64,000 nt of DNA from an uncultured Chloroflexia bacterium (GCA_963732945.1 CAVTBL010000004.1:273864-337863); one strand, 5' to 3'. Shown: positions 7,406-64,000, counted from the first letter of the stretch. Made by a program: numbers and translations. Notes: a model not told the origin generated them from the letters alone.

Positions 7406-7810
7406 TTTCCACTGAAATAGTCGGCAGATCAGGCGTGATAAAAAGCGGAAAAAGACTTCCGATAAAGTCAAGAAATAGTCGGGAAAATAAAGTCAGTAGA
7501 GGCCGACGAATATGGCAGATTCAGGAGATATTGCACATAATTTCTGGCAGAAGCGTCCCTCGATGCGGTCGGGAAAAGCAAAAGCTTAATCGGACATCGC
7601 AGGCCACTATTCTCGACCCGACGTCCTCCGCTTCGAGGTCCATGCGAGACCCAGGAAGCCTGTGTATCGGCTCACTGACCCGATGATAACGGCGAAGTAG
7701 CTGTCTGAGTTCCCGCGCCATCGAGCGCGAACTCAGTCAGCGTGGTAGAGGTGTCTCAGAGTGATTCGGCCGGACACGCACCTGGTCCCATATCTCCTGG
7801 CCTGCACGCG

Positions 7811-8950
7811 TTAGCTCCGCCAGATCTTGCGCGCCGTTTTCACGACCAGCTCAAGCTTGGCGTGCTGCTCTTCGAAGCTGAGGGGATTGCCCGCGCCCGA
7901 CGAAGCGAAGCCGCATTGCGTGCTCAGCGCCAGGTTCTCGAGTGGTATGAAGCGGGTGGCCTCGCGGATGCGGCTCTCGACCGCGGCGACGTCCTCCAGC
8001 GCTCCGTTCTTGGTCGTTAGCAGGCCCAGCACGACCGTCGCGCCGCCGCGAACGTGTTCGAGTGGCTCGAAGCCGCCTGCGCGCTCGGTGTCGTACTCGA
8101 GTAGCAGCGTGTCGATGTTGGTTAAGCGAGGGAACATCTGCGCCGCCAGGTGCTCGTAGCCGCCACTGGCGGACCAGTAACCGCCGCCGCCGTTGCCGCG
8201 ACAGACGTGAATCGCGCGCGTGACGCCGCTGAGACCCTCGAACAGCGAGTTATCGAGCTCGGCGTCCGCGATCAGATCGGCCTCGAGGTCGCGACCTTCG
8301 GCCTCGAAGGCTGCGCGCACGTCCGGGTCGGTGTAAGCCTGGCCGTAGTTCGGCGCGTCGATCTGGACGTAGTTGCAGCCCATCGCAATCACGCGGTCGA
8401 CGACTTCTCGCCGGATGAAGTCGCGTACGGCCAGCAGGTAGGCGTCGACCGTCGGGTAGGCGTCGCTCGAGTCCTTCTCGTGCCAGAAGTGGCGGTGGTA
8501 GCTGGGCGCCGTGAACGTGTACTTGGTCCGGAAGCCGGCGTTCTGGCTGAGGAAGCCGTACTCGCTGGTAGCGATGTCGTTGCGCAGACGCAGCGGCGTC
8601 TTGATCACCGTCCCGGGGCCAAGGTTGCGCGGCACGATGTTGCCGGAGCTGTCGCGCCAGAACTTCATGTACGTGATGCGATAGTCCTCGGCGGGACCGT
8701 AACCCTCGAAGGGGGCGTTGGGCTGGTAGCTGGTCGAAGGGTTCCAGCCGACGCGCCGGTATTCGCCGTCCGTGATCACATCCAGCCCGACAGACTTCTG
8801 CAGCTCGATCGCCTCCAGGATCGCCCGGTCCTCGACAGCGCGCAGGTCTTCGGCGCTGATCTTGCCGTCGCGCGCCTGCTGACGCGCCTCGTACAGGTAG
8901 GCGGGACGCAGGAGACTACCGACCGTCTCGGCGCGGGCTGTTGCGACCAT
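7811..8950 (-). CDS. MetE C-terminal-domain-like Zn-dependent alkyl/methyltransferase family protein (paralog 1)
   Basis: It carries VGSLLRP...DGEYRR, the H-x-C motif (IHVCRGN) and STQCGFAS, which correspond to the Zn ligands of cobalamin-independent methionine synthase and its relatives. AAGGAG precedes the ATG. Confidence 0.8.
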   Translation of the reverse strand: MVATARAETVGSLLRPAYLYEARQQARDGKISAEDLRAVEDRAILEAIELQKSVGLDVITDGEYRRVGWNPSTSYQPNAPFEGYGPAEDYRITYMKFWRDSSGNIVPRNLGPGTVIKTPLRLRNDIATSEYGFLSQNAGFRTKYTFTAPSYHRHFWHEKDSSDAYPTVDAYLLAVRDFIRREVVDRVIAMGCNYVQIDAPNYGQAYTDPDVRAAFEAEGRDLEADLIADAELDNSLFEGLSGVTRAIHVCRGNGGGGYWSASGGYEHLAAQMFPRLTNIDTLLLEYDTERAGGFEPLEHVRGGATVVLGLLTTKNGALEDVAAVESRIREATRFIPLENLALSTQCGFASSGAGNPLSFEEQHAKLELVVKTARKIWRS

Positions 8951-9049
8951 GAAAGGGCTCCTTCTAAGACTCGAGGTGATTGGTGATGCTGGTATCGGGC
9001 GCGAGCATGAGGTTGCAGTTGCTGGCGCACCTTCGCGGCGAAGACAAAA

Positions 9050-9966
9050 CTAGCGCTCGGGCCTGACGTCGATACGCGACTCGTCCAGCGTCACGAGATG
9101 ATGAGGTGTCCAGATGCCGAGCTTACCGGCGACGGCCGCTGCCTTGATCTTGGCCGGCGCCTGCGGGTCCCGCGCGAGCGAACCGTAGCCCTCGTTGCGC
9201 AGCCTCGTGCGGATCTCGTCCTCGGTCATGCGTGAGGGCGCCGTAGTCGCGCGGCTTCCAGGTCTCGTCCTTCTGAACGTACTCGTGGCCGATCACAATG
9301 CCCTTCTGCTTCATGAAATAGCGTGGCGCCGTCGGCTTCCATGGCCTGCCACTCCGGAGACGCGACAGCGCGCTGGAACGCAGCGTAATCGTCGAACCAG
9401 AGCTCGGACCAGCCGTCGTGCGTCATGTTGCGCAGCTGGAACGCCTGCAGCGCGGCGTGGCACTGCGTGTAACGCCGCAGGCCCGGCAGCTTGGCGGCGA
9501 TTGGCCCGTGCACGTTGAGCCAGTGGTCGAAGAAGTCGCGGTGGTCGAGGCCGGGCTTGCGGCAGACCATGAAGATCGCGTTGATCATCGACGGCGTGGT
9601 CGTCCCATCGATGATGACGTGCTCGTCGCCGAAGATCACGGCGTGCTGGTCGTCGCGAGGCCAGCGGTCGGTGCGGTCGAACAGTTGCCGGTCGTCGGCC
9701 GGGACCGGAGACCACGACATATCGGTCCCGGGCGTGTTCACGACGAGTGGGTCCTCGTGCCAGAACATCGAGATGCCGACGAAGGTTGGTGCGGGTTCGT
9801 GTTCGTAGGCTTCGGGCAGGCTGAAGTAGTGGTAGTAACGCTCGAGGTTTGGCCGGTTGGCCACCAGCTTGCCGTGGCTATCGGCCCAGTAGTCCTGGAC
9901 CTCGGTGCGGGAGCGCCCGCTGGTCAGGTTGGGATTTGCTGCCGTGATTCGCTTGACTACCATCAC
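9050..9966 (-). pseudogene. Tandem EthD-domain protein, paralog A; frame interrupted twice (pseudogene or assembly indels)
   Basis: It is collinear with the intact paralog at 18711-19646. The frame breaks near 9316 (extra base in an AAA/TTT run) and near 9232. All three frame pieces are recoverable, ending ...LVTLDESRIDVRPER. Confidence 0.7.
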
Positions 9967-10001
9967 ACCTGCCCTCGCTGAGAGACCCTAACGGAGTCTG
10001 G

Positions 10002-10018
10002 ATTCCAATGTGCGGAAT
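10002..10018. promoter_or_regulatory. Imperfect palindrome ATTCCA-ATGTG-CGGAAT (candidate IclR-type operator) in a divergent intergenic region
   Basis: Read directly from the sequence. It lies 36-52 nt upstream of the EthD-A start and upstream of the divergent IclR gene. It is related to the sites at 15366, 15530 and 16692. Confidence 0.5.
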
Positions 10019-10214
10019 TCATTGTCGCGCATTGTAACCTAGGCCCGAAGTATGTCAAGGTAGCCATGCTGTGGCTTGAGGTCGCCCACGCTAATCGCGA
10101 GGCGCAGGGCTTGAATCAATCAGGGTGTTTCGTGTGAGATTTAACGAGGAAGACAAAGTAAGAGTCACTTCGACGGGCAGGGCAGGCTGATATCGTGGGA
10201 TGGGGTAAGGCAGG

Positions 10215-11051
10215 ATGAGCGACGGATCTGAGTCTTCGGCCCAGCGTTCTGGTAACGTCCGCTCGGTTCAGCGGGCGGCACGGATTATCACGGCGCTCGC
10301 GGAGCATCCCTACCCGATGGGCGTCGCCGAGCTCGCGGCGCGTGTCATGCTTTCGCCGGCCAGTGTGCACCGCATGCTTGCGACGCTGATTAGCGTCGGT
10401 TGGGTCGATCAGAACTCCCGCACCGCGAAGTACCGTCTCGGGACTCGCATGCTGGGTATCGGTTCGACCGGCCTGATCACCAGCCCGGTAATCCAGAACG
10501 GCCGCGGCTTCCTGACGCGGCTCGCCGAACAAACCGGCCAGTCGACCGCCCTCAGCACGCTGGTCGGCATGCGCGTCATCCACCTCGCGCGCTCGCCCGG
10601 CGCCAAGATGGTCGGCCGGCCCGACTTCGAACCAGGCGTCTCGCAACCGGCCCACGCCATGGCGGACGGCAAGCTGCTGCTTTCATACCTGCCGGCTACG
10701 GAGCGCGCCTACCTCTACGAGGTCGACGGCCTGCGACGCTACACCGACACCACGATCGTCGATCCCGCCGCCATGGAGCGCGAGATCGAGTGCATCCGCG
10801 AGAGCGGCTACGCCGTCGACCATTACGAACGCTTTGCAGCCGCGCGAGGTGTTGCGGTGCCGGTGCTAGGGCTCGACGGCGAACCGCTGCTGGCGATGCT
10901 CTGCCTCGGCCACATCAACGACGATCCGGCTGAGGATGCGGCGCTGGCGCGTCAGATGCAGTCGCTGGCAGCCGAGATGTCGGACAACATCGCGGTCCTC
11001 GGCGACATGCCCAAGGCGAACACCGAGTTCGCGAAATACAACCTCGAGTAG
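10215..11051 (+). CDS. IclR-family transcriptional regulator
   Basis: It has an N-terminal wHTH (VQRAARIITALAEHPYPMGVAELAARVMLSPASVHRMLATL) and a C-terminal IclR effector-domain pattern. Confidence 0.9.
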   Translation: MSDGSESSAQRSGNVRSVQRAARIITALAEHPYPMGVAELAARVMLSPASVHRMLATLISVGWVDQNSRTAKYRLGTRMLGIGSTGLITSPVIQNGRGFLTRLAEQTGQSTALSTLVGMRVIHLARSPGAKMVGRPDFEPGVSQPAHAMADGKLLLSYLPATERAYLYEVDGLRRYTDTTIVDPAAMEREIECIRESGYAVDHYERFAAARGVAVPVLGLDGEPLLAMLCLGHINDDPAEDAALARQMQSLAAEMSDNIAVLGDMPKANTEFAKYNLE

Positions 11052-11114
11052 CGCATAGACATAGGCATACACATAAAGCACGAGAGTCGCGGCTGACGCC
11101 GCGTTAATCTCTGT

Positions 11115-11168
11115 GCCTATGCCTATGCCTATGCCTATGCCTATGCCTATGCCTATGCCTATGCCTAT
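11115..11168. repeat. Perfect hexanucleotide microsatellite (GCCTAT)x9
   Basis: Counted directly. It overlaps the last codons and stop of the gene at 11165-11684. Degenerate inverted copies (ATAGGC-like) lie at 11052-11078. Confidence 0.95.
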
Positions 11169-11684
11169 GCGCTGATTAGTCGCTTGCCAACGTCCTCGCC
11201 GTAGAAGTGCGGTCCGGTGCCTTGCTTCGGCGCCATGTTCGCGAGAACGGCGAGCAGCTCTTCGTTGCTCGCATCCAGGTCGATCGGTTCGTTGTGGGGC
11301 TGCGGGTAGTCCATGCCCGTGGACCAGTAGACCTCGACGTGGTTGTTCTCTGGATCGCGGAAGTAGCAGCCGAACGCGATGCCGTGGTTCGTGATGCGGA
11401 AGTTCTCGATACCGTAGTCGCGCAGGGCGTGGTACATCTCGCGCAGGTCGTCCAGCGATCCCGATCTTGAACGAGATCTGCTGCGCGTTGGTGTGACGGT
11501 CCGGCGAGGGGCTGATCAGGAACTCGTGGTGCTCCGTCTCCGGGTGAGCGCTGAGGAAGACGCCGCGGCCGTTGCCGCCGTCGGTCACCGTCAGCCCGAG
11601 GATGCGCGTGTAGAAGTCGAGCATCTTGTCCAGGTCCTGTACCGAGATGCCGACGTGCCCAAGCGATGTGACTCGTGTCGCCAT
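11165..11684 (-). pseudogene. VOC/glyoxalase-fold (extradiol dioxygenase-like) protein, paralog 2; one frame interruption
   Basis: It is collinear with 11707-12240. The frame breaks at a CCC/GGG run near 11460-11462 (ISFKI|G|SLDDLREMYH). Confidence 0.7.
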
Positions 11685-11706
11685 TTCTTGTCTCCTCGTC
11701 TCGCGC

Positions 11707-12240
11707 TTAGCGCGTCGAGACTTGCTCCGGCGCCAGGCGCTTGCCGACGTCCGTGCCGTAGTAGTGCGGCCCGGTACCGGCGCGCGGCTCCAGGTCCTCG
11801 ATCAGCTTCAGCAGCGCGTCGTCGCTCTGCGACAGGTCGATTGGGTCGGCGTAGGGCTGCGGGTAGTCGATGCCCGTCGACCAGTAGACCTCGATCCGGT
11901 TGTCCTCCGGGTCGCGGAAGTAGCAGCCGAACGCGATGCCGTGATTGACGACGCGGTCGATCGGGCTGCCGTACTCGACGATGCGCTTGTGCATCGCCTT
12001 GAGGTCCTGCAGCGAATCGACGTGGAAGGAGACCTGACCGGCGTCCGTCTTCTGGTCCGGCGACTTCGCCAGCGCGATCTCGTGGTGCTCTGTTTCCGGA
12101 TGCCCGCTGAGGAACACGACGCGGTCTTCCGGTCCCCGGTCGGTTTCGGTCAGGCCGAGGACGCTCGTATAGAAGTCGACCATCGTCGGCACGTCCCGGA
12201 TGAAGATGCCGAAATGCCCCAGCCCGGTTACTTTTGCCAT
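11707..12240 (-). CDS. VOC/glyoxalase/bleomycin-resistance/extradiol-dioxygenase fold protein
   Basis: It has GLGHFGIFIRDVP...FYTSVLGL...HHEIAL...NHGIAFGCYFRDPEDNRIEVY. GGAGG lies 6 nt before the ATG. Confidence 0.8.
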   Translation of the reverse strand: MAKVTGLGHFGIFIRDVPTMVDFYTSVLGLTETDRGPEDRVVFLSGHPETEHHEIALAKSPDQKTDAGQVSFHVDSLQDLKAMHKRIVEYGSPIDRVVNHGIAFGCYFRDPEDNRIEVYWSTGIDYPQPYADPIDLSQSDDALLKLIEDLEPRAGTGPHYYGTDVGKRLAPEQVSTR

Positions 12241-12250
12241 CGCCTGCCTC

Positions 12251-13418
12251 CTAGCTGAACGCCTGTCGAGCCGCCTCTGCCACGAGCTCGAGCTTGCGGC
12301 GCTGCTCGTCCCAGGTCAAGCAGATTGCCCTGCGCCGTCGATGCGAAGCCGCACTGCGTCGAGATCGCGAGGTTGTCGATCGAGACGTACTTTGTCGCTT
12401 CCTCGATGCGGCGTCGCAGGTAATCGACCTGCTCCAGCTCCGGCAGCTTCGAGCTGATCAACCCGAGCACGACCATCTTGTCTTTGGGAACGAAGCGCAG
12501 CGGCTCGAAGCCTCCGGCACGCTCGCTCTCGTACTCGAGCAGGAAGCGGTCGACGTTGAGCTGCGCGAACGCCTTCTCCGCGATCGGTTCGTAGTCGCCT
12601 TCGGCGTGCCAGCGGCTGCGTGCGTTGCCGCGACACATGTGCAGGCCGACGGTGACGCCCGGCGTGCCGCGCAGGCCATCGAGCGCAATGTTGTCGAGCC
12701 GGATCAGCTCGTTGAGGTAGGCGTCCGGGTCCTCTCCCTCCGCGATCATGCGCGGCCGCACCGTCTTGTCGGCGACGCGCTCGACATAATGCAGCGAGTC
12801 GAGCTGGACGTAGGGCGCGCCGTCTTTGACCAGCGCCTTCATCTCGTCGTTGATCATGCCGGCGAGGTCCTGGGCCAGGTCGAAGCGCGTCGGGTAGGCC
12901 TTCTCGCTGACGCCGGGCTCGTACATGCCGCCGGCCATCGACATCGGGCCGGGCAGGGTGATCTTCCACGGCCCCGGCGCATGCTCACTCAGGAACGCGG
13001 CGTCGGTCGCGACGAAACGACGCGTCTTCTGCAGCTTCTCGCCCGCCACCATGGCGCGTGCTCGCTGAAGCATCGTGTTGACGTCGTTGGCGACGGGCTC
13101 ATCCGGCGTCGGGCCGCGCCACACGTCGAAGATGCGGCGGATCGGCGAGCCCTCTACCGGGACGAGACCGGAGATCGCGCCGGCAGCAGGGTTGCTCCAG
13201 CCGGTGCGACGGTACTCGCCGTCCGTGAACACGCTGATCCCCGACTGGCGCTCCATCTCCAGCGCCTTGAGGACGCTCGCGTCTTCGACCTCGCGCAACT
13301 GCTCCTCGCTGATTTTGCCGTCGGTGAAGGCGGCGCGCGCCTCCAGGAGCTCGGGCGGTCGCAGCAGGCTGCCGACGTGGTCGGCTCGGTACTTGGTCGC
13401 GGTGGTTGTCGATGTCAC
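12251..13418 (-). pseudogene. MetE-like Zn alkyl/methyltransferase family protein (paralog 2); frame interrupted about 20 codons before the stop
   Basis: It has a GTG start after AGGAAGGG and the motifs HMCRGN and STQCGFAS. Removing one base near 12318 restores ...GNLLTWDEQRRKLELVAEAARQAFS*, which is homologous to the paralog 1 tail. Confidence 0.75.
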
Positions 13419-13457
13419 AAACGATGCCCTTCCTAAGCGGTGACGTGGTTTCGGTGT

Positions 13458-14383
13458 CTACGATACCCAGCGCGAAGGCCGGGCGTCGATGCGCGAATCG
13501 TCCAGCGTGACCAGGTGCTCGGGCGTCCAGACACCAAGCTTGTCGTGCTGCGCTGCAGCCTTTATCTTGGCGGGCGCGTTCGGGTCCTTCGCCAGCAGGC
13601 CGCCGTAGTCTTCTTTGAGCAGTCGCGCGCGGATCTGGTCCTCGCTCAGTCAGCAGCGCACCGTAGTCGCGTGGCTTCCAGCTCTCGTCCTTCTGCACGT
13701 ACTCGCGACCGATGACGATGCCCTTCTCCGGACAGAACAGCGTGGCGCCGTCAGCCTCCATCGCGGCCCACTCAGGCGACTGTGTCGCGTGCTGGAACGA
13801 CCAGAAGTCGTCGAACCACAGCTCAGACCAGCCGTCGTGGGTGCTGGTGCCGCGCGCCAGGCTCTCCAGCACGACGTGGTTCTGAATGTAGCGCCTGAGA
13901 CCGGGGAGTTGCGCCGCGAGCGGGCCGTGCACGTTGAGCCAGTGGTCGAAGAAGTCGCGGTGGTCGAGGCCGGGCTTGCGCACGACCATGAAGATCGCGT
14001 TGACCATCGATGCCTTCGTCTGTCCGTCGATCAGCACGTGCTCTTCGCCGAGGATGTCGGCGTGCTGATCGTCGATCGGCCAGCGAATCGTGCGGTCGAA
14101 CACGTGCTCGTCGTCCTGTCGCACCGGGAACCAGGCGCTGGGGTCCGGCGGCTGAGGCGGCGGCAGCGGGTTGTCGCGCCAGAACATCGAGATGCCGATG
14201 AAGGTCGGCTTCGGGTTCGGAGTCGTAGGCCTCGGGCAGGCTGAAGTAGTGATGGTAGCGCTGAAGCGCCGCACTGTTCGCGACCAGCTTGCCGTGGCTC
14301 TCGGCCCAGTAGTGCTGGGCTTCGACTCGCGATCGTCCGTTGGTCAGGTTCTCGTTGGCTGCCGTGATGCGCTTGATCGCCAT
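13458..14383 (-). pseudogene. Tandem EthD-domain protein, paralog B; frame interrupted twice
   Basis: Breaks lie near 14214 (GGG/CCC run) and near 13650. The pieces reassemble collinearly with the intact paralog D. Confidence 0.7.
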
Positions 14384-14409
14384 GCCCGTCTCTCCTTCTG
14401 CAGACTGAT

Positions 14410-15346
14410 TCAGCGTTGAGGTCGCGCGTCGATCCAGTTGTCGCCGTAGACGGCGAGGTGTTCCGGCGTCCAGACCGCGATCTGGTCCTTCAGGGCCGCG
14501 GCCTTGATCTTCGTCGCGATGGCGGGGTCGCAGGCGAGTGATTTGTAGCCTTCCTTGCGCAGACGGGCGCTGATCTCTTCCTCGGTCATCGAGAGCGCGC
14601 CGTAGTCGCGCGGCTTCCAGCTTTCGTCCTTCTGCACGTACTCGCGCCCGATGACGATGCCCTTCTCAGGGCAAAATAGCGTCGCGCCGTCTGCTTCCAT
14701 GGCAGCCCACTCGGGAGACTGCGTGGCCTGCTGGAACGACCAGTAGTCGTCGAACCAGAGCTCGGACCAGCCGTCGTGGGTGCTGGTGGCGTAGGCGAAG
14801 CTCTCGAGCACGGCGTGGTTCTGAATGTAGCGCCTGAGCCCGGGTAGCTGCGCCGCGAGTGGTGCCGTGCACGTTGAGCCAGTGGTCGAAGAAGTCGCGG
14901 TGGTCGAGGCCCGGCTTGCGCACGACCATGAAGATCGCGTTGACCATCGACGCCTTCGTTTCGCCGTCGATAAGCACGTGCTCCTCGCCGAGGATGTCGG
15001 CGTGCTGGTCGTCTGTCGGCCAGCGCTTCTCGCGGTCGAATACCTGACGGTCGTCGGAGCCGAGTGGCTGGTTGCGATAGTAGTGCGTGAACGGGTCCTG
15101 GTCGGCCTCGGAGCGCGCCGGTACGTTCAGCGGGTTGTCGCGCCAGAACATCGAGATGCCGATGAAGGTCGGTTTCGGTTCGTTCTGGTAGGCCTCGTAG
15201 AGGCTGAAGTAGTGGTGATAGCGCCGCAGCGTCGGGCTGTTCGCGACGAGTCTGCCGTGCGTCTCGGCCCAGTAATGCTGGGCCTCCATGCGGGAGCGGC
15301 CGGTGTAGGTGTTCTCGTTGGCTGCGGTGATACGCTTGATTGCCAA
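14410..15346 (-). pseudogene. Tandem EthD-domain protein, paralog C; frame interrupted once
   Basis: A TTG start at 15346 follows AAGGAGG. There is a single break near 14863 (DHWLNVHG|PLAAQLPGLRRY). Confidence 0.7.
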
Positions 15347-15365
15347 GGCCCCTCCTTCACGGTCG

Positions 15366-15382
15366 ATTTCGTTGTGCGGAAT
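15366..15382. promoter_or_regulatory. Imperfect palindrome ATTTCG-TTGTG-CGGAAT upstream of EthD-C
   Basis: Read directly. It lies 20-36 nt upstream of the TTG start at 15346. Confidence 0.45.
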
Positions 15383-15502
15383 CGGCTTCCAACATCGTAG
15401 ACATGGGGCATCGCCTGTCAATACCCTGATCGCCGTTCCCGTAGCGTCGTGGTCACCGATCGACGTTACAGAAGAAAGATGCTGTCAATTCCGTCCGATT
15501 GC

Positions 15503-15531
15503 TTGACAGGCCAATGATGTGGACGTAGCAT
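15503..15531 (+). promoter_or_regulatory. Candidate sigma-70-type promoter TTGACA-N17-TAGCAT for the LLM gene
   Basis: The hexamers were read directly. The same -10 (TAGCAT) recurs at 16675. Confidence 0.45.
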
Positions 15532-15546
15532 TCCGCACCACGGAAT
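15530..15546. promoter_or_regulatory. Perfect palindrome ATTCCG-CACCA-CGGAAT overlapping the -10/+1 of the candidate promoter
   Basis: Read directly. This position is typical of a repressor operator. Confidence 0.55.
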
Positions 15547-15613
15547 CTACTTTCGGATTCCGCTCTTTCGGTTCGACGGGTCAGGCCCGGCTTTGTCTGC
15601 GGAGGTAGCGGCT

Positions 15614-16588
15614 GTGCAGATCTTCGGCAACACGATTCGCTTCAACGTCCAGGCCACGACCACCCGCTGGACCTACCCGGAGTTTCGCGACAACTGGCTG
15701 CTCTTCGAGCGCCTCGGCTACGACGTTGCCTACGTGACCGACCACTTCGTTTCGGAGAACCCGCAGGCCGGCCTCTCGCCGGTGTGGGAGGGTCCGACCA
15801 TGCTCTCGGCGCTCGCGGCCCAGACGACGCGTATTCGCTGCGGCGTCATGGTCGCCGGCAACACGTATCGCAATCCCGGCATCCTGGCCAAGATCGCGAC
15901 GACTATCGATCACGTCTCGAATGGGCGCATGGAGCTCGGCATGGGCTCCGGCCACACGCAGATCGAGCACGACCAGTACGGCATCCCGTACTACACCTCA
16001 GGCCGCCGCCTGCGCGCCTTCGCGGAGTCGGCCAAGATCGTGCGCAGTCTGCTGCACAACGAGCGCACCGACTTCGACGGGCAGTACTACAAGATCACCA
16101 ACGCGGCCTGCGAGCCGAAGCCGGTGCAGCAGCCGTTCCCGCTCCTGGTTGGCGGCATCGGCGAAGAGCTCTCGATGCGCATCGTGGCCGAGTCCGCCGA
16201 CATCTGGAATAACTGGACCTCGCCCGGCTACGAGGAGTATCAGCAGAAGCTCGACGCCCTCGCGCGCCACTGTAAGGATGTGGGTCGCGATCCCGCCGAC
16301 ATCCGTAAGTCGATGCACATCAAACCGATCGTTGGCGAGACCGACGCGGAGGTAGAGGAACGCGCTTCCGTGCCGGGGCGTCATCGCAGCCAGGGCACGC
16401 CGGACCAGGTTACGGAGGCGCTGCTCGGCTTCGTGCGCATGGGCGTCAGCGACTTCGTGTTCATGTTCGATTCGCCGGGTGACTACCGCAGCCTGGAGCT
16501 GCTCGCGACGCAGGTAGCGCCGCATGTACGCGCCGAGGGGCCTCGATTGTTGGAGGCGGCAGCGTCCGCATCGCGGGCTTCGGTGTAG
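15614..16588 (+). CDS. Luciferase-like monooxygenase (LLM) / F420- or flavin-dependent oxidoreductase family protein
   Basis: It has GYDVAYVTDHF, MVAGNTYRNPGILAK and MELGMGSG, which match the LLM pattern. The GTG at 15614 lies 8 nt after GGAGG; the ORF-track start of 15593 is an alternative. Confidence 0.8.
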   Translation: MQIFGNTIRFNVQATTTRWTYPEFRDNWLLFERLGYDVAYVTDHFVSENPQAGLSPVWEGPTMLSALAAQTTRIRCGVMVAGNTYRNPGILAKIATTIDHVSNGRMELGMGSGHTQIEHDQYGIPYYTSGRRLRAFAESAKIVRSLLHNERTDFDGQYYKITNAACEPKPVQQPFPLLVGGIGEELSMRIVAESADIWNNWTSPGYEEYQQKLDALARHCKDVGRDPADIRKSMHIKPIVGETDAEVEERASVPGRHRSQGTPDQVTEALLGFVRMGVSDFVFMFDSPGDYRSLELLATQVAPHVRAEGPRLLEAAASASRASV

Positions 16589-16652
16589 CGGGGTCGTTCA
16601 AGCCTGTACAGTAACCCTTCTTCATAACGCTTCGATGTAAACAATCTCGATA

Positions 16653-16680
16653 TTGACAAGCTGTATTTCATAGCTAGCAT
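16653..16680 (+). promoter_or_regulatory. Candidate promoter TTGACA-N16-TAGCAT for the solute-binding-protein gene
   Basis: Read directly. Confidence 0.45.
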
Positions 16681-16691
16681 GGCGACAGTAC

Positions 16692-16708
16692 ATTCCGATA
16701 AGCGGAAT
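16692..16708. promoter_or_regulatory. Perfect palindrome ATTCCG-ATAAG-CGGAAT just downstream of the candidate promoter
   Basis: Read directly; it extends to 7-5-7 if the flanking C/G are included. Confidence 0.55.
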
Positions 16709-16732
16709 GCCATCTTGCAAGGAGGAACTGCA

Positions 16733-18624
16733 ATGGAAGCCAACTACTGGCACAGCTTCAGGGCAACGCGTCTAACGCGGCGCCGCGCTCTTGCTGCCAC
16801 TGGATCTGCGGCAGCTGCGGCAGCGTTCTTAGCAGCCTGTGGCGGCAGCAGCAACAACTCGTCTAACGGCTCCAGCCAGGGCGGTTCCTCGACGGGGAGG
16901 GCGGAGCCGGCTCCGGTAGCAGCAGCTCCGGCTCGGGAGCGTCTTCCGGCGCCGCGGCGTCGAAGCTCCTGTTGATCCCGACGGACCAGACATCGACGCG
17001 AAAGCGCGGCGGCACGATGAACATCGCCGTCAACGTCGCCACTGCCACGCTCGAGCAGTCGGCCGGCGGCAACGGCTCCGGCAGCGCACTGGTGCACAGC
17101 GCCTACAGCCAGTTGATGCGCGCCAAGATCGGCACCTACAAGGACACGCCTCAGGGCGTCTGGGAGCCGGAGTTCGCGCAATCCTTCGAGCAGAGCGCCG
17201 ACGGCCTCTCGGTCACCTTCAAGCTGCGCGGCATGAAGTTCGACAACCGCGCGCCTACCAACGGTCGCGTCAGCACCTCGGCCGACGTCAAGTACAGCTG
17301 GGACCGCTTCGTCAACACGAATCCGCGCGCCCCCGAGCTGGCGAATGCCAAAGCGGCAGACGCCCCCGTCACCAGCGTCGACACGCCGGATGAGCAGACG
17401 GTGGTCTTTCACCTCGCGTTCCCGTTTGCGCCGTTTTCGGCTTACCTTGGTAGCGCCTTCTTCCCCTTCATATACCCGAAGGAGGCCGACGGCGGCTATC
17501 AGACCAAGGGCGTCGCGCGCGGTACCGGTGTCTGGCAAATTCCCGACGACCGCCCGAGCGGCGACGCCGAGATGATCCGCAACCCGAATTACGTTCACAA
17601 CGGCGCGGACGGCGAGCCCTACTTCGACAAGCTCACCATGCACAGCCTCACGGATCCTTCGACGATCTACGCGCAGCTCAACGCGGGCGCGCTCGAGTTC
17701 GTCACGACCGCACTGAGCCAGGAGGACATCCTCAAGCTCAAGCAGGACAATCAGAAAATGATCATGTATCAGCGCCCCTTCTACGCGAAGGGCTCCGGCG
17801 GCATCTTCTTCGGACGCCGGACAGGATCGCCGTGGAACGACGATCGCGTGCGCAAGGCCCTTGCGATGAACATGGACGCGGAACTGTGGGGCGACAACGC
17901 CAGCAACCGCAAGAAGTACGAAGCCCAGGGCCTGCCGGTCAACACGAAGTGGTTCGCGCGCTGCGGCCCCGGCTACGAGTGGTACCTGGACCCCAAGACG
18001 GACGCTGCCGGGCCCGGCGGTAAGTACCTGCAGCACAACCCGGACGATGCGCACAAGATGCTCCAGGCGACGGGCCTCAAGCTCCCGATCGAGAGCATCT
18101 GGCAGAGGACAACGGACGCATCGCGCGACCCTAACTACGAGGCGATGATGGGTCTCTTCGAGCAGAGCGGCGACTTCAAGTTCACGAACCAGATCTGGCC
18201 CGACGTGAACACCTACTACGCCCAGGTGCGTAACACCGGCGGCGACTTCGACGGTCACAGCATCGCGTTCTACTTCGACCACCACGACTACGACTGGACG
18301 ATGTACCTCATGTACAACGTCAAGTCCACCGACTTCTGGATGAAGATCGCCGGCGAAGACCCGAAGATGACCGACTTCGTCAACCGCCAGCGACGCGAGC
18401 TGGACGGGAAGAAGCGCGAGACCATCTGGCAGGACTTCGTCAAGTACGATCTGCAGCAGATGAACTACCTCCCGTATCACTGGCCTGCCGACTGGCAGCC
18501 CTACTACATCGCTCAGCCCTGGGTCGGTGGTTGGGGTTGGTGGCAGCCCTACATCGAGCAGTACCCGGACGGAGCCGGTCAGATCTACTCGCAGTACTGG
18601 TACGACGCGAGCAAGAAGGCTTAA
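16733..18624 (+). pseudogene. ABC-transporter solute-binding protein, family 5 (peptide/nickel/opine type), Tat-lipoprotein signal; frame interrupted in the Ser/Gly linker
   Basis: The ATG follows GGAGG. It has a twin-arginine motif (TRRRAL) and lipobox (LAAC). The frame breaks near the GGGG run at 16894-16897. The remainder is collinear with the paralog at 62205. Confidence 0.75.
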
Positions 18625-18648
18625 TCTTCGTTCTCTCAGTGCAACGAC

Positions 18649-18687
18649 GGGGTCGGCTTCCATTTTCGGAAGCCGGCCCCGGTTTTC
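18649..18687 (+). terminator. Intrinsic terminator-like hairpin with T tract
   Basis: GGGGTCGGCTTCC-loop-GGAAGCCGGCCCC forms a 13-bp stem with one G-U pair, followed by GGTTTTC. Confidence 0.6.
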
Positions 18688-18710
18688 ATCCGTCAGGAGG
18701 GGCTTTGGCC

Positions 18711-19646
18711 ATGGGCATCAAGCGCATCACGGCGGCGAACGAGAACGTCACTGCGGGGCGTTCGCGTGAAGAAGCTCAGCACTACTGGGCCGAGAGCCAC
18801 GGCAAGCTCGTGGCGAACAATGCCGGCATTCTGCGTTATCACCACTACTTCAGCCTGCCCGAGGCCTATGAGCACGACCCCAAGCCGAACTTCATCGGCA
18901 TCTCGATGTTCTGGCGCAACGATCTCGAGACGATGTTCGCGCAGCGCATCCTGCAGCCCGGCCAGTCCGCCTACAACGCGGACGACCACCAGCTATTCGA
19001 CCGCGAGATTCGCTGGCCCACCGATGACCAGCACGCTGACATCTTCGGCGAAGAGAACATCATCATCGACGGGCCCAAGACGCCGTCGATGGTCAACGCG
19101 ATCTTCATGGTCGTGCGCAAACCCGGCCTCGATCACCGCGACTTCTTCGAGCACTGGAAGCAAGTGCAGGTGCCTCTCGCCTCCAAACTGCCGGGCCTGC
19201 GCCGCTACATCCAGTGCCCCGTCGTGCTCGAGAGCATCGCGCGCGGCTCGAGCACCCACGACGGCTGGTCCGAGTTCTGGTTCGACGACTACGCCGCGTT
19301 CCAGCGGGCCGTCGCCTCGCCGGAGTGGGCGGCGATGGAGGCCGATGGCGCCACGCTGTTCATGAAGCAGAAGGGCATCGTTATCGGCCGCGAGTACGTG
19401 CAGAAGGACGAGACGTGGAAGCCGCGCGACTACGGTGCGCTATCGCTCAGCGAGGACGAGATTCGCGCTCGCCTTGAGCGCGAGGGCTACACCTCGGTCG
19501 CCGCGGACCCGACGGCTCCGGCCAGGATCAAGGCTGCGGCCGCCGCCAACAAGCTCGGCGTCTGGACGGAGCACCACCTCGTGACGCTGGACGAATCGAG
19601 CATCGACGCGCGACCAGAGCGCATCCAGGCACAGCCGCTGCACTGA
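18711..19646 (+). CDS. Tandem EthD-domain protein, paralog D (the only uninterrupted copy), with a C-terminal extension of about 70 aa and unknown function
   Basis: The ATG follows AGGAGG. It has two EthD-like halves (RSREEAQHYWAESHGKLV...LRYHHY and GLDHRDFFEHWKQVQVPLASKLPGLRRYIQ). The tail is SEDEIRARLEREGY...LGVWTEHHLVTLDESSIDARPER. Confidence 0.75.
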   Translation: MGIKRITAANENVTAGRSREEAQHYWAESHGKLVANNAGILRYHHYFSLPEAYEHDPKPNFIGISMFWRNDLETMFAQRILQPGQSAYNADDHQLFDREIRWPTDDQHADIFGEENIIIDGPKTPSMVNAIFMVVRKPGLDHRDFFEHWKQVQVPLASKLPGLRRYIQCPVVLESIARGSSTHDGWSEFWFDDYAAFQRAVASPEWAAMEADGATLFMKQKGIVIGREYVQKDETWKPRDYGALSLSEDEIRARLEREGYTSVAADPTAPARIKAAAAANKLGVWTEHHLVTLDESSIDARPERIQAQPLH

Positions 19647-19768
19647 AGGTCGAACGCTCCTCATCTGAGTGAAGCACGGAGGCTTGTCTTGAACGAAGGC
19701 AGAGGCGTTTTGTCTTTCGAGTGGTGGCTCGCTGCCCGGTGGGAAGCTCTACGTGTACAGATAAAGTC

Positions 19769-20500
19769 CTATGCGAGCGCTGCGGCCGGAAGATTGCCGA
19801 ACCGTGCTGTCCAGCTGCCGGGTGGTGAAGCCAGTGCCGTGAGTTGCTCAACGAAACGAAGGAAGTCCTGCCGAGGCATCCGCTCGGCGCCCAGACTCAG
19901 CAAGTGTGGGTTCTCGACTTGGGCGTCGATGAGGGGGAAGTCCCACTCGGAGAGCCTGCGTGCCAGGCCCGCCAGCGCGACCTTCGAGCCGCCGGACTCG
20001 GCGCTGAACATGCTCTCGCCGAAGAACATGTGGCCAATCGCAACGCCGTAGATGCCGCCGACGAGCCGCTCGCGATCGTAGACCTCTACCGAGTGCGCGC
20101 TGCCCTGGGAATGAAGCGCCAGATACGCCTCTTGCATCTCCCGGGTTATCCAGGTGCCGTTCTGTCCCGTTCTCGGTATGGCCGCGCAGGCTTCGATGAC
20201 GTCTCGAAACGCCGTGTCAGCGCGGACCGTCCAGGTAGAGCTTCGCAGGCTGCGCCGAAATCGACTCGGTAGGCTGAAGGCGTCCGTGCGGAACACGACG
20301 CGAGGATCGGGTGACCACCAGAGGATCGGTTGGCCTTCGGAGTACCACGGGAAGATGCCGTTTCGGTAGGCGTTCAGGAGCCGAGCCGGCGACAGGTCGC
20401 CGCCCGCCGCCAGCAGCCCGTCCGGCCAGCGCATCGCCGACTCCGGAGGCGGGAACGGGGCGCATGGATCGTCCGGCAGTAGATACAAACGCCGATTCAT
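19769..20500 (-). CDS. aat: Leucyl/phenylalanyl-tRNA--protein transferase
   Basis: It has LLNAYRNGIFPW, ILWWSPDPR, TWIT.EM..AY..LH..G.AHSVE and GG.YG...G..FFGESMFS, the characteristic Aat motifs. Confidence 0.85.
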   Translation of the reverse strand: MNRRLYLLPDDPCAPFPPPESAMRWPDGLLAAGGDLSPARLLNAYRNGIFPWYSEGQPILWWSPDPRVVFRTDAFSLPSRFRRSLRSSTWTVRADTAFRDVIEACAAIPRTGQNGTWITREMQEAYLALHSQGSAHSVEVYDRERLVGGIYGVAIGHMFFGESMFSAESGGSKVALAGLARRLSEWDFPLIDAQVENPHLLSLGAERMPRQDFLRFVEQLTALASPPGSWTARFGNLPAAALA

Positions 20501-61296: not shown

Positions 61297-62058
61297 CTAG
61301 CCGACGAGTTCGCGCACGCCACGGCGATAGCCGAGGCTGGAAGAGATGACGTCGGCGAGCTGGAGGAGCGGTGGGATTAGCTTCTCCAGCGTGGCTTCGT
61401 CGGTGATGCCGTAGAAGCACACGGCGGCGATCGGACTCCCACTCGAGTCCAGGATCGGCGCCGCAACGGCGATGTGGCTGTTGTCGTAGTGCTCACCGCG
61501 GTTGATCGCATAGCCCTGCTGCCTGATCCGGGCGAGCTCCTCGCTCAGCGTCTCACGCGTGGCGAAGGTTTGCGGTGTGAACTGCTTCAGCGGTCCATTG
61601 AGGATGGACTGCCGAACCTCCTCGCTGGAGAACGCGAGGATTGCCTTGCCCGGGGCGCAGGCGTAGACCGGCACGATGTACGACAGGATGTTGTACATCG
61701 CGTAGTCGTCCTGGGGTGTGAGGCTCTCGAGGTAGATCGTCTGGTCGCCGCGTACGACGGCAATGTAGGCGGCGTTGCCCCATTCCTTGACGGCCACCTC
61801 CATGTGCGGCCGAGCGATATCGAGGAAGGGCAGGCGTCGCGCCGCCTGTACGCCCCAGGTCCAGAAGCGCACGTCGAGGAAATGTCGCCCCGTGTCGTCG
61901 CGCTCGACGAGTCCGTCGTCCACTAGCGAAGCCAGCAAGCGGGAGACGGTGGACTTGTTGGCGCCCATCTTCTCGGCCAGATCGGTGACCGTTAGACCTT
62001 TCGGGAAGGCAGCAAGCAGGTCGAAAGCCTGGACTGTTCGGGAAAGACTATTCGCCAT
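61297..62058 (-). CDS. IclR-family transcriptional regulator (second copy)
   Basis: It has the wHTH SRTVQAFDLLAAFPKGLTVTDLAEKMGANKSTVSRLLASL and an effector domain. I moved the start to 62058. Confidence 0.85.
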   Translation of the reverse strand: MANSLSRTVQAFDLLAAFPKGLTVTDLAEKMGANKSTVSRLLASLVDDGLVERDDTGRHFLDVRFWTWGVQAARRLPFLDIARPHMEVAVKEWGNAAYIAVVRGDQTIYLESLTPQDDYAMYNILSYIVPVYACAPGKAILAFSSEEVRQSILNGPLKQFTPQTFATRETLSEELARIRQQGYAINRGEHYDNSHIAVAAPILDSSGSPIAAVCFYGITDEATLEKLIPPLLQLADVISSSLGYRRGVRELVG

Positions 62059-62204: not shown

Positions 62205-64000
62205 ATGGCGAACTACTGGGACAAGACACTGAGCACCAGGATTTCACGCCGGCGCGGGTTGGTCGGCCTCGGAGGCGGTGCGCTGGGCGCCGCGTTCCTC
62301 GCAGCCTGCGGCGGTAGCAGTAACAACAACAACTCGTCTACCACTTCGGGCGCTTCGTCCGCTTCCGGCGCCTCGTCTGGCAGCGGCGCGGCATCGGGCA
62401 GCAGCGCAGCGTCAGGCGCCACTGGCGCCGCATCCGGTGCGTCGGGCAGCGTCGACAAGTCCGGCCTGCTGACCAAAGCCGTCGACACCACCGCGCAGGC
62501 CAAGCCGGGCGGCACGTTCCCCTACTACGTAACGTCCGAAGTCAAGACGATGGACCCGCTGAACAACGCGGCGGTCGGCTCCGGTATCAACAACCAGGCC
62601 TACGCCTACAGCCGGATGTTCCAGTGGAAGCCCGGCGTGCTCGACAACCCGGTCGGCGGCGCCTTCGTGCCGGACGCGGCCGAGTCTTACGAGGTTTCTC
62701 CGGACGGGCTGACGATCACCTTCAAGATGCGCTCGGACGTGAAGTTCGACCCGCGCCCGCCGACAAACGGCCGCCTCATGACGGCGAACGACGTCAAGTT
62801 CAGCTGGGACAAGTTCTCGGTCAACGGCCTCACTCGCTTCGACTACGTCAACTCGCTGAACGCGGCGGGACCGGTGAAGTCTATCGATGCAACCGATGAC
62901 CACACGGTCGTGGCCAAGCTAGCTTTCCCGATCGCGAACATGGTGTCGCGTTTCGCCTTCCACCGTTTCCTCTCGATCATGCCTACGGAGTCTGATGGCG
63001 GCTTCGACCCCAAGACGGACCAGCGCGGCTCCGGCCCCTGGATGCTGCGCAAGTGGGAGCCAAGCGTCGCCTATACCTACGACCGCAACCCAACTTGGCA
63101 CCTGCGCAAGGGCCAGCCTTACCTCGACACGCTGAACCTGGCCCTGATCTCGGAGCCCGCCCAGATTCGCGCTCAGCTCCTCTCGGGCGGCATCTGGAAC
63201 GCACGCACCAACGCCGGGGAGATCGATCCTACAGACGTCATCGCGGCGAAGAAGGAAGAGACGAAGCTCGGCATGTATGACGACGGCTACCCCTGGGGTG
63301 GCCCGAACCACCTGGCCTTCGGGTTCAAGGACCCGTCGCCGTTCCAGGACGTGCGCATCCGTCGCGCCATGTCGATGACCCTCGACCGCGACCTCTGGAT
63401 CGACGCCAACTACAACGTCAGCAAGTTCGAGGCGCAGGGTCTGCCGATGGAGACGCGCTGGAACACGCACTACTCGGCCGACGACAAGACCTACTGGCTC
63501 GACCCCAAGGGCACTTCCCTGGGCGAAGGCGCAGCGTACTTCAAGTTCAACGTCGCCGACGCCACCAAGCTGATGCAGGCCGCCGGCTACAACTCACCCA
63601 TGAAGCTCACGGGCCTGATGCAGGGCAACGGTAACAACCAGATCACCAGCCTCGTCGGGATGCTTACCGGCAGCAAGCTGTTCGACGTTAGCATCCAGAG
63701 CCTGACCGCCACCGACTACAACCACACGGTGTACAACGGCTCCGGCGACTTCGAGGGTCTCGGCCTGGCGCAGAACATGGGCGTCCGCGGCGACATCGAC
63801 CAGTACCTCTCGACGCGCTGGTCCCCGGGCGGCGCATCGGGCACGCAGACGATGTTCCCCAAGGTCTACGACTGGTATCAGAAGTCGCAGGACCTGATCA
63901 CCGCCCAGCGGCAGGAGCTCGACGACAAGAAGCGCCTCAGCATCATCCTCGATCTCGAGAAGGAGCTGGCGCTGCAGATGCCCACCGTGCCGTACCCCGG
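62205..64000 (+). CDS. ABC-transporter solute-binding protein, family 5, Tat-lipoprotein signal; 3' end outside the window
   Basis: The ATG follows GGGAGG. It has SRRRGL plus the lipobox LAAC, then a Ser/Gly/Ala linker. It is collinear with 16733-18624. The frame stays open to the window edge. Confidence 0.8.
   Translation, partial: MANYWDKTLSTRISRRRGLVGLGGGALGAAFLAACGGSSNNNNSSTTSGASSASGASSGSGAASGSSAASGATGAASGASGSVDKSGLLTKAVDTTAQAKPGGTFPYYVTSEVKTMDPLNNAAVGSGINNQAYAYSRMFQWKPGVLDNPVGGAFVPDAAESYEVSPDGLTITFKMRSDVKFDPRPPTNGRLMTANDVKFSWDKFSVNGLTRFDYVNSLNAAGPVKSIDATDDHTVVAKLAFPIANMVSRFAFHRFLSIMPTESDGGFDPKTDQRGSGPWMLRKWEPSVAYTYDRNPTWHLRKGQPYLDTLNLALISEPAQIRAQLLSGGIWNARTNAGEIDPTDVIAAKKEETKLGMYDDGYPWGGPNHLAFGFKDPSPFQDVRIRRAMSMTLDRDLWIDANYNVSKFEAQGLPMETRWNTHYSADDKTYWLDPKGTSLGEGAAYFKFNVADATKLMQAAGYNSPMKLTGLMQGNGNNQITSLVGMLTGSKLFDVSIQSLTATDYNHTVYNGSGDFEGLGLAQNMGVRGDIDQYLSTRWSPGGASGTQTMFPKVYDWYQKSQDLITAQRQELDDKKRLSIILDLEKELALQMPTVPYP

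Follow-up and report, generated by a model that had tools for sequence, protein, structure and literature searches.

An ATTCC-N7-GGAAT palindrome at four promoters as the candidate operator of a neighboring IclR-family repressor in an uncultured Chloroflexota bacterium

We analyzed a 64,000-nt stretch of DNA from an uncultured Chloroflexia bacterium (GCA_963732945.1, CAVTBL010000004.1:273864-337863; contig C4:273864-337863 of the assembly), hereafter called the window, in which four 17-bp palindromes lie at the promoters of genes flanking an IclR-family regulator gene (positions 10215 to 11051, plus strand). These palindromes very likely are operators of this IclR protein, which would act on four transcription units as a repressor. 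The initial annotation had proposed both parts of this reading. The assignment of the palindromes as operators is supported by the uniqueness of the sites, their placement, their conservation in two phyla, and the family consensus, and repression appears to be the most likely sign of regulation given that the sites stand at or after the -10 elements of strong predicted promoters. In addition to the IclR gene, the Pfam gene set of the cluster comprises two MetE-like genes (Meth_synt_2), four tandem-EthD genes, two VOC/glyoxalase genes, a gene for an F420-type luciferase-like oxidoreductase (LLM), and a gene for a family-5 solute-binding protein (SBP). The identities given earlier for the IclR, EthD, MetE-like, LLM, and SBP genes were thus borne out. 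The proposed regulon of EthD, MetE-like, LLM, and SBP genes also stands as far as it goes, but it was incomplete, as two VOC genes belong to it as well, and its operator core needs to be refined as described below. If correct, this reading unites 11 genes of unknown function, arranged in four transcription units, as one co-regulated unit in an uncultured Dehalococcoidia lineage.

A pattern search for ATTCCG-N5-CGGAAT recovered the sites of the initial annotation (i.e., two perfect copies at positions 15530 to 15546 [ATTCCGCACCACGGAAT] and 16692 to 16708 [ATTCCGATAAGCGGAAT] and one-mismatch copies upstream of EthD-A at positions 10002 to 10018 and of EthD-C at positions 15366 to 15382) and, as had been noted by eye, no further copy with one or no mismatch in the window. 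None of 100 shuffled versions of the window reached two perfect or four near-perfect matches. The genome-wide search with one mismatch suggested at that time returned two perfect and six one-mismatch matches from the whole assembly (3.17 Mb, 17 contigs, 65% G+C), and half of these eight matches fall within a single 6.7-kb stretch. Of the other four genome matches, three are within long open frames. With a Poisson background rate taken from these four, the probability of finding four sites so close together at any place in the genome is about 1e-7. Thirty related genomes contained 0 to 7 scattered matches each, about as many as were found with a reversed-pattern control. A position weight matrix (PWM) built from six sites scored the sites of the locus at 23.6 to 28.5 bits, compared with 16.9 bits for the next best match in the genome. 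In a noncircular test, a PWM built only from nine sites of three related loci (G007, L052, and L060; see below) placed the four window sites at genome ranks 1 to 4, with scores of 25.3 to 20.9 bits; about one match of at least 20 bits is expected per genome by chance with this matrix, according to a Markov simulation. The four sites are therefore essentially unique to this locus within the genome.

In the ortholog locus of the closest genome, the strict pattern matched only with two mismatches permitted, and because of this, positions 6 and 12 cannot be regarded as fixed: the conserved core of the putative operator is ATTCC-N7-GGAAT, with positions 6 and 12 semiconserved (R/Y). The initial annotation had also remarked that three of the four spacers begin with CAC on the coding strand of the target; this holds for the window sites but is not general. 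Two further candidates in the genome were considered and not counted. One (C16:222538-222554, outside the window; TTTCCGCCCCTTGGAAT) is separated by 2 nt from the start codon of the LLM-like gene that follows it and scored 20.9 bits with the relatives-only PWM, a score at which about one match is expected by chance. The other (C12:12580) precedes one of the roughly 30 SBP paralogs, beside a GntR-like gene of its own, and reached only 17 bits.

All four palindromes adjoin near-consensus promoters. A scan of positions 7500 to 20500 identified six sigma-70-like sites, and the best four (10 to 11 of 12 consensus positions) are the ones beside the palindromes, each with a perfect TTGACA as its -35 box. 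Operator O1 (10002 to 10018; ATTCCGCACATTGGAAT on the coding strand of EthD-A) lies 12 nt downstream of the -10 element TACAAT in the promoter-like site of transcription unit 1 (10031 to 10058, minus strand; TTGACA-N16-TACAAT, 11/12). Operator O2 (15366 to 15382; ATTCCGCACAACGAAAT on the coding strand of EthD-C) lies 11 nt downstream of the -10 element TACGAT of unit 2 (15394 to 15421, minus strand; TTGACA-N16-TACGAT, 10/12). For unit 3, the promoter-like site (15503 to 15531, plus strand; TTGACA-N17-TAGCAT, 10/12) shares the last two bases of its -10 element with operator O3 of the LLM gene (15530 to 15546), which also covers the expected transcription start. Operator O4 of the SBP gene (16692 to 16708) begins 11 nt after the -10 element of unit 4 (16653 to 16680, plus strand; TTGACA-N16-TAGCAT, 10/12), and 33 nt separate its center from the start codon of SBP downstream. 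The overlap at O3 and the position of O4 just downstream of its promoter agree with the initial annotation. Overall, the site centers in the window are 28 to 76 nt before start codons. In repressor-type IclR regulation (IclR, KdgR, HmgR, and TtgV type), the operator overlaps the site of polymerase binding or the start point; the window operators would do so if transcription begins where these promoters predict. A location on or just after the -10 element of a near-consensus promoter is the position expected for repression.

We found no second palindrome 18 to 22 nt from any site. The divergent site pairs (EthD-C/LLM or SBP/LLM) are separated center to center by 164, 161, 135, and 133 bp in four loci. 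With no nearby second palindrome and no conserved helical phase, tandem sites and DNA looping were rejected.

The arrangement is conserved in related uncultured Dehalococcoidia. IclR orthologs were identified in four other genomes of the genus (72 to 73% identity) and on metagenome contigs of related Dehalococcoidia (71 to 82% identity). Five genomes of the genus have the IclR ortholog, and these five, and no others in the genus, also have close tandem-EthD orthologs. In G007 (locus L013), the SBP and LLM genes are divergent, and their intergenic region contains ATTCCGCACAGTGAAAT 13 nt after the SBP -10 element and CTTCCGCACAGTGGAAT abutting the LLM -10 element. The contig L052 has the gene order of the window, with sites at the promoters of EthD-A, EthD-C, LLM, SBP1, and SBP2 (the counterparts of O1 and O2 are at positions 9869 and 15182), and in L060 the promoters of SBP and LLM each have a site. 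Counterparts of O4 are thus present at the SBP promoters of G007, L052 (two), and L060, and the overlap or abutment of site and -10 element seen at O3 recurs at the LLM promoters of the same three loci. We aligned eight EthD/SBP promoters and four LLM promoters from the four loci (window, G007, L052, and L060). Almost all of the invariant columns fall on the -35 element, the -10 element, a single A in a weak third box farther upstream, and the two half-sites (ATTCC and GGAAT), whereas the spacers and the flanks of the boxes have diverged. The other contigs of G006, G013, and G017 yielded only background-like matches, none of them beside LLM or SBP orthologs; the promoter regions are missing from these assemblies owing to their fragmentation.

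Autoregulation of the IclR gene is not indicated. Alignment of the regions upstream of the IclR orthologs showed no conservation, and a site in the intergenic region upstream of IclR is present only in the window and L052, where it is part of the divergent EthD-A promoter (O1 in the window), about 200 bp from the IclR start. No site was found near IclR in G007-type loci.

The motif also accompanies the regulator in a second phylum. Orthologs of the IclR protein with 55 to 63% identity are encoded by Actinomycetota (Nocardia, Nocardioides, Nakamurella, Streptomyces, Streptosporangiaceae, and Acidimicrobiaceae), and the recognition helix (SPxSVHRxLxTL...GWVxQN) is kept in all IclR orthologs. Around the orthologs from genomes, ATTCC-N7-GGAAT with up to one mismatch matched 25 times, compared with one control match, in 302 kb; on the metagenome contigs with an ortholog, there were 24 matches and no control match in 222 kb (pooled, 49 versus 1 in 524 kb). 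Even short contigs (L071, L072, L074, L077, and L081) have a site 150 to 320 bp from the IclR gene. The Actinomycetota sites follow promoters of the form TTGACG/TTGACA-N16-18-TAnnnT and stand just before start codons. Genes behind these sites encode a flavin reductase, FAA hydrolase, cupin, ACAD-like and FAD-dependent ring hydroxylases, CoA transferases, and an LLM, and a homolog of VOC2 (53 to 57% identity) is the only gene common to the window and Actinomycetota sets. The target genes of Actinomycetota mostly differ from those of the window, so that the motif goes with the regulator rather than with the genes under its control. A third box often precedes the Actinomycetota sites (GGAAT-N3-ATTCC-N7-GGAAT). 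Examples of the form GGAAT/GAAAT-N3-ATTCC-N7-GGAAT were seen at L027 10060 to 10120, at L032 8595 to 8640, and at L052 16430 to 16460 and 18470 to 18503. Among the window sites, the only clear third box is the one preceding O2 (GGAAG-N3).

These distributions tentatively suggest a shared cassette, consisting of the IclR ortholog, TTGACA-N16-TAnnAT, and a start-point ATTCC-N7-GGAAT, that may be common to Actinomycetota and soil Dehalococcoidia and rewired in the latter, although we consider this less likely than not. In this scenario, classical aromatic ring-hydroxylation and ring-cleavage genes would be the targets in Actinomycetota, and tandem-EthD, MetE-like, LLM, and orphan SBP genes would be the targets in Dehalococcoidia, with a small VOC enzyme kept in both. 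If this is true and effector specificity was kept as well, the EthD/MetE-like pathway would act on the same phenolic class of compounds, and the repressor could be used as a ready-made sensor for finding that substrate.

The regulator itself belongs to the IclR family by its domains. The gene at positions 10215 to 11051 has an intact frame of 278 aa, in which HTH_IclR (PF09339, residues 17 to 67, E value of 5e-17) is followed by IclR_C (PF01614, residues 92 to 227, E value of 3e-23), in keeping with the domain order and length (about 250 to 280 aa) of IclR proteins. No NCBIfam equivalog fits the protein, the best partial matches being BhcR and PcaR/PcaU/PobR, and its closest solved structures are generic IclR-family regulators (8eju, a Pca regulon regulator; E value of 5e-21).

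In the survey of Suvorova and Gelfand (2021; PMC8222616), subgroup WTT-11-AAW of IclR group 1 (WTTYCRYW3RYGRAAW) contains 43 orthologous groups with 935 sites, three-box sites occur in 32 orthologous groups, site centers lie mostly 20 to 80 nt before the start codon, and WTT-11-AAW motifs in Chloroflexi stand at 0% (Table 2 of the survey). The window sites match WTTYCRYW3RYGRAAW at 15, 16, 15, and 16 of 17 positions. Like members of this subgroup, they are odd-length, 17-bp palindromes beside the regulator gene, with centers inside the -20 to -80 zone. Their consensus, their promoter position near the regulator, and their conservation at orthologous genes would place them in WTT-11-AAW. The third box described for the 32 orthologous groups, which has alternating direction (GGAAx-N3-ATTCC-N7-GGAAT), is clear in actinobacterial and L052 sites but weak in the window. 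The window also differs from the subgroup in its target genes: a set of tandem-EthD and MetE-like genes is not a described IclR regulon. The helix-turn-helix strings of this IclR group had no match in the part of the PMC8222616 supplement that was searched. The locus would add a Chloroflexota example to a motif subgroup that lacks Chloroflexi cases in this large survey.

Two characterized regulators have closely similar operators. HmgR of Pseudomonas putida, a repressor relieved by its pathway substrate, homogentisate, binds ATTACGTTATTCGTAAT (PMC8222616). This is a 17-bp palindrome with the same layout as that of the window (ATTACG-N5-CGTAAT versus ATTCCG-N5-CGGAAT), accompanied by an extra external half-site; it differs in having A in place of C at position 4 of the half-site, and its host phylum and target genes are others. 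The likeness considered here is that of the operators. GenR of Corynebacterium glutamicum, the regulator of 3-hydroxybenzoate and gentisate catabolism, has the footprint consensus ATTCC-N7(5)-GGAAT (PMC8222616, Table 1). This is the same as the core in the window, and like GenR, the window protein would be an IclR-type regulator with a catabolic gene cluster nearby as its target. Nevertheless, we suggest that the window regulator should not be filed as GenR, because its putative regulon lacks gentisate genes; the likeness considered here is that of the operator consensus. By Pfam, the window genes are EthD, Meth_synt_2, Glyoxalase/VOC, Bac_luciferase, and SBP_bac_5 genes, and none of the gentisate enzymes looked for (i.e., gentisate 1,2-dioxygenase, fumarylpyruvate hydrolase, maleylpyruvate isomerase, and 3-hydroxybenzoate 6-hydroxylase) is among them. 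GenR reportedly (work ascribed to Chao and Zhou, 2013) is an activator of genKH and genDFM, with sites that overlap the -35 element or stand at or upstream of it, and represses only its own gene. Whereas these activating sites are located at or upstream of the -35 element, all of the window sites are located at or after the -10 element.

The computation shows that the sites exist, are unique, are placed at promoters, have been conserved in evolution, co-occur with IclR orthologs, and match the family consensus. From this we infer how the protein binds, which sign the regulation has, and what the oligomeric state and the kind of effector are. The IclR protein would contact each palindrome with the winged helix-turn-helix at its N terminus, either as a dimer or as a dimer of dimers. 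As every site extends over the end of the -10 hexamer or over the initial ~25 transcribed bases of a near-consensus promoter of the sigma-70 type, the bound protein would keep RNA polymerase from binding or from escaping the promoter. Release of the repressor would be brought about by a small molecule, presumably the pathway substrate or an intermediate, that binds to the IclR_C domain. Because the IclR orthologs in Actinomycetota control aromatic-catabolic genes, this effector is likely to be phenolic or aromatic, and its identification could reveal the substrate of the tandem-EthD/MetE-like/VOC/LLM set. The regulatory logic would be ordinary, with a local IclR repressor acting on a canonical family operator.

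Several points weigh against repression by the neighboring IclR protein. The motif alone leaves the sign of regulation unfixed, because GenR, with the same ATTCC-N7(5)-GGAAT consensus, is an activator of two operons, and PobR, PcaR, and PcaU are further activators among IclR members. The same protein might thus bind the sites as an activator or a dual regulator in the manner of GenR. This appears unlikely: the four sites are on or downstream of the -10 element and none is upstream of the -35 element, a perfect TTGACA with good spacing is atypical of activator-dependent promoters, and the placement is kept in the relatives as well as in the orthologous loci of Streptomyces and Nocardioides. HmgR, with its very similar palindrome, is also a repressor. 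Site position and near-consensus promoters favor repression on this evidence. The identity of the binding protein can also be questioned. A paralogous IclR protein on contig C10 (C10:111267-112082, equal to L017 8268-9083) is 56% identical to the window IclR protein and has a near-identical recognition helix (SPAS(V/T)HR.L.TL...GW..QN, shared by the paralog, its orthologs, and the window protein), so it could bind the palindromes instead of, or in competition with, the neighboring IclR protein. No ATTCC-N7-GGAAT-like site was found near this paralog or its orthologs in G007 and G011, whereas the motif tracks the orthologs of the window IclR protein in two phyla, within a few hundred bases and even on very short contigs. 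We therefore judge binding by another factor, such as this paralog, to be quite improbable as the explanation of the sites; some cross-talk between the paralog and the window operators is possible.

The palindromes might instead be bound by no protein at all and represent leftovers of promoter duplication or hairpins in 5' untranslated RNA. The locus does contain duplicated genes (four EthD, two MetE-like, and two VOC genes) whose promoters could have been copied along with them, and transcription would run through three of the four palindromes, each of which could then fold into a 6-bp stem. Passive duplication predicts more similarity than the eight aligned promoters show, as these share little outside the -35 element, the -10 element, and the boxes (52% mean column identity). 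At the LLM gene, the site overlaps the -10 element and the start point, so that no RNA hairpin can form there, and the half-site mismatches are mostly not compensatory (e.g., ATTCCGCACAACGAAAT). The motif also stands ahead of unrelated Actinomycetota genes wherever an IclR ortholog is present. Taken together, these features make an origin without protein binding extremely unlikely.

Repression by the neighboring IclR protein must also be weighed against the basis of the promoter assignments, in which transcription starts are predicted from consensus hexamers only, and against the condition of the target genes. In comparison with their G007 orthologs, 6 of the 11 regulon genes have at least eight frame breaks within the region from 9053 to 16975: EthD-A (~9230 and ~9310), MetE-like 2 (~12320), EthD-B (~13650 and ~14230), EthD-C (~14865), SBP (~16970), and VOC1 (10866 to 11684). 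All genes of transcription unit 2 except VOC2 are affected. Amino acid similarity carries on across each break, and there are no long homopolymers at the break points. On the syntenic metagenome contig L052, all of the genes broken in the window are intact, and split genes were found in 2 of ~25 cases sampled elsewhere in the assembly. The breaks reflect either recent decay (pseudogenization) or indels in the assembly, which the paralogous repeats may have made worse. The regulon may accordingly be partly decayed in this genome, or the assembly may be wrong.

The four transcription units that IclR would repress were delineated by gene order and orientation, and their domains were assigned with Pfam. 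Unit 1 (7811 to 9966, minus strand) consists of tandem-EthD A (~9053 to 9966, with the two frame breaks) and MetE-like 1 (7811 to 8950), with EthD and Meth_synt_2 domains. Unit 2 (11166 to 15346, minus strand) consists of EthD-C, EthD-B, MetE-like 2, VOC2 (11707 to 12240), and VOC1 (~11166 to 11684). A hexanucleotide microsatellite (11115 to 11168) lies at the 3' end of VOC1, between this gene and the convergent IclR gene, and translates as GIGIGIGI... in the minus-strand open reading frame at 10866 to 11684.

Unit 3 (15614 to 16588, plus strand) is the LLM gene alone (Bac_luciferase, E value of 2e-46), which falls in the NCBIfam TIGR03560 family with a score below the cutoff. Its likely start is GTG at 15614, after a GGAGG motif, according to the sequence and the alignment with G007. 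Compared with three relatives, the 5' leader of the LLM gene (15547 to 15600) has ~36 extra bases, which hold a direct repeat (two copies of CTTTCGG), a lone ATTCCG half-site, and a small hairpin (15577 to 15589).

Unit 4 (16733 to 19646, plus strand) consists of the SBP lipoprotein gene (SBP_bac_5; 16733 to 18624), with its one frame break near 16970, and EthD-D (EthD; ~18711 to 19646), whose frame is intact. Between the SBP stop at 18624 and the EthD-D start, a strong hairpin with a 14-bp stem (18648 to 18681) is followed by GTTTTCATCC. The hairpin looks like a partial terminator within the unit and could set the level of EthD-D below that of SBP. The SBP gene has no permease or ATPase genes alongside, and it is one of roughly 30 SBP_bac_5 paralogs in the genome. 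At the far end of the window, a second IclR-family gene (61378 to 62052, minus strand), whose product is 23% identical to the protein encoded at 10215 to 11051, adjoins another SBP_bac_5 paralog (62481 to 64000), and the two may form a separate IclR-SBP regulatory pair.

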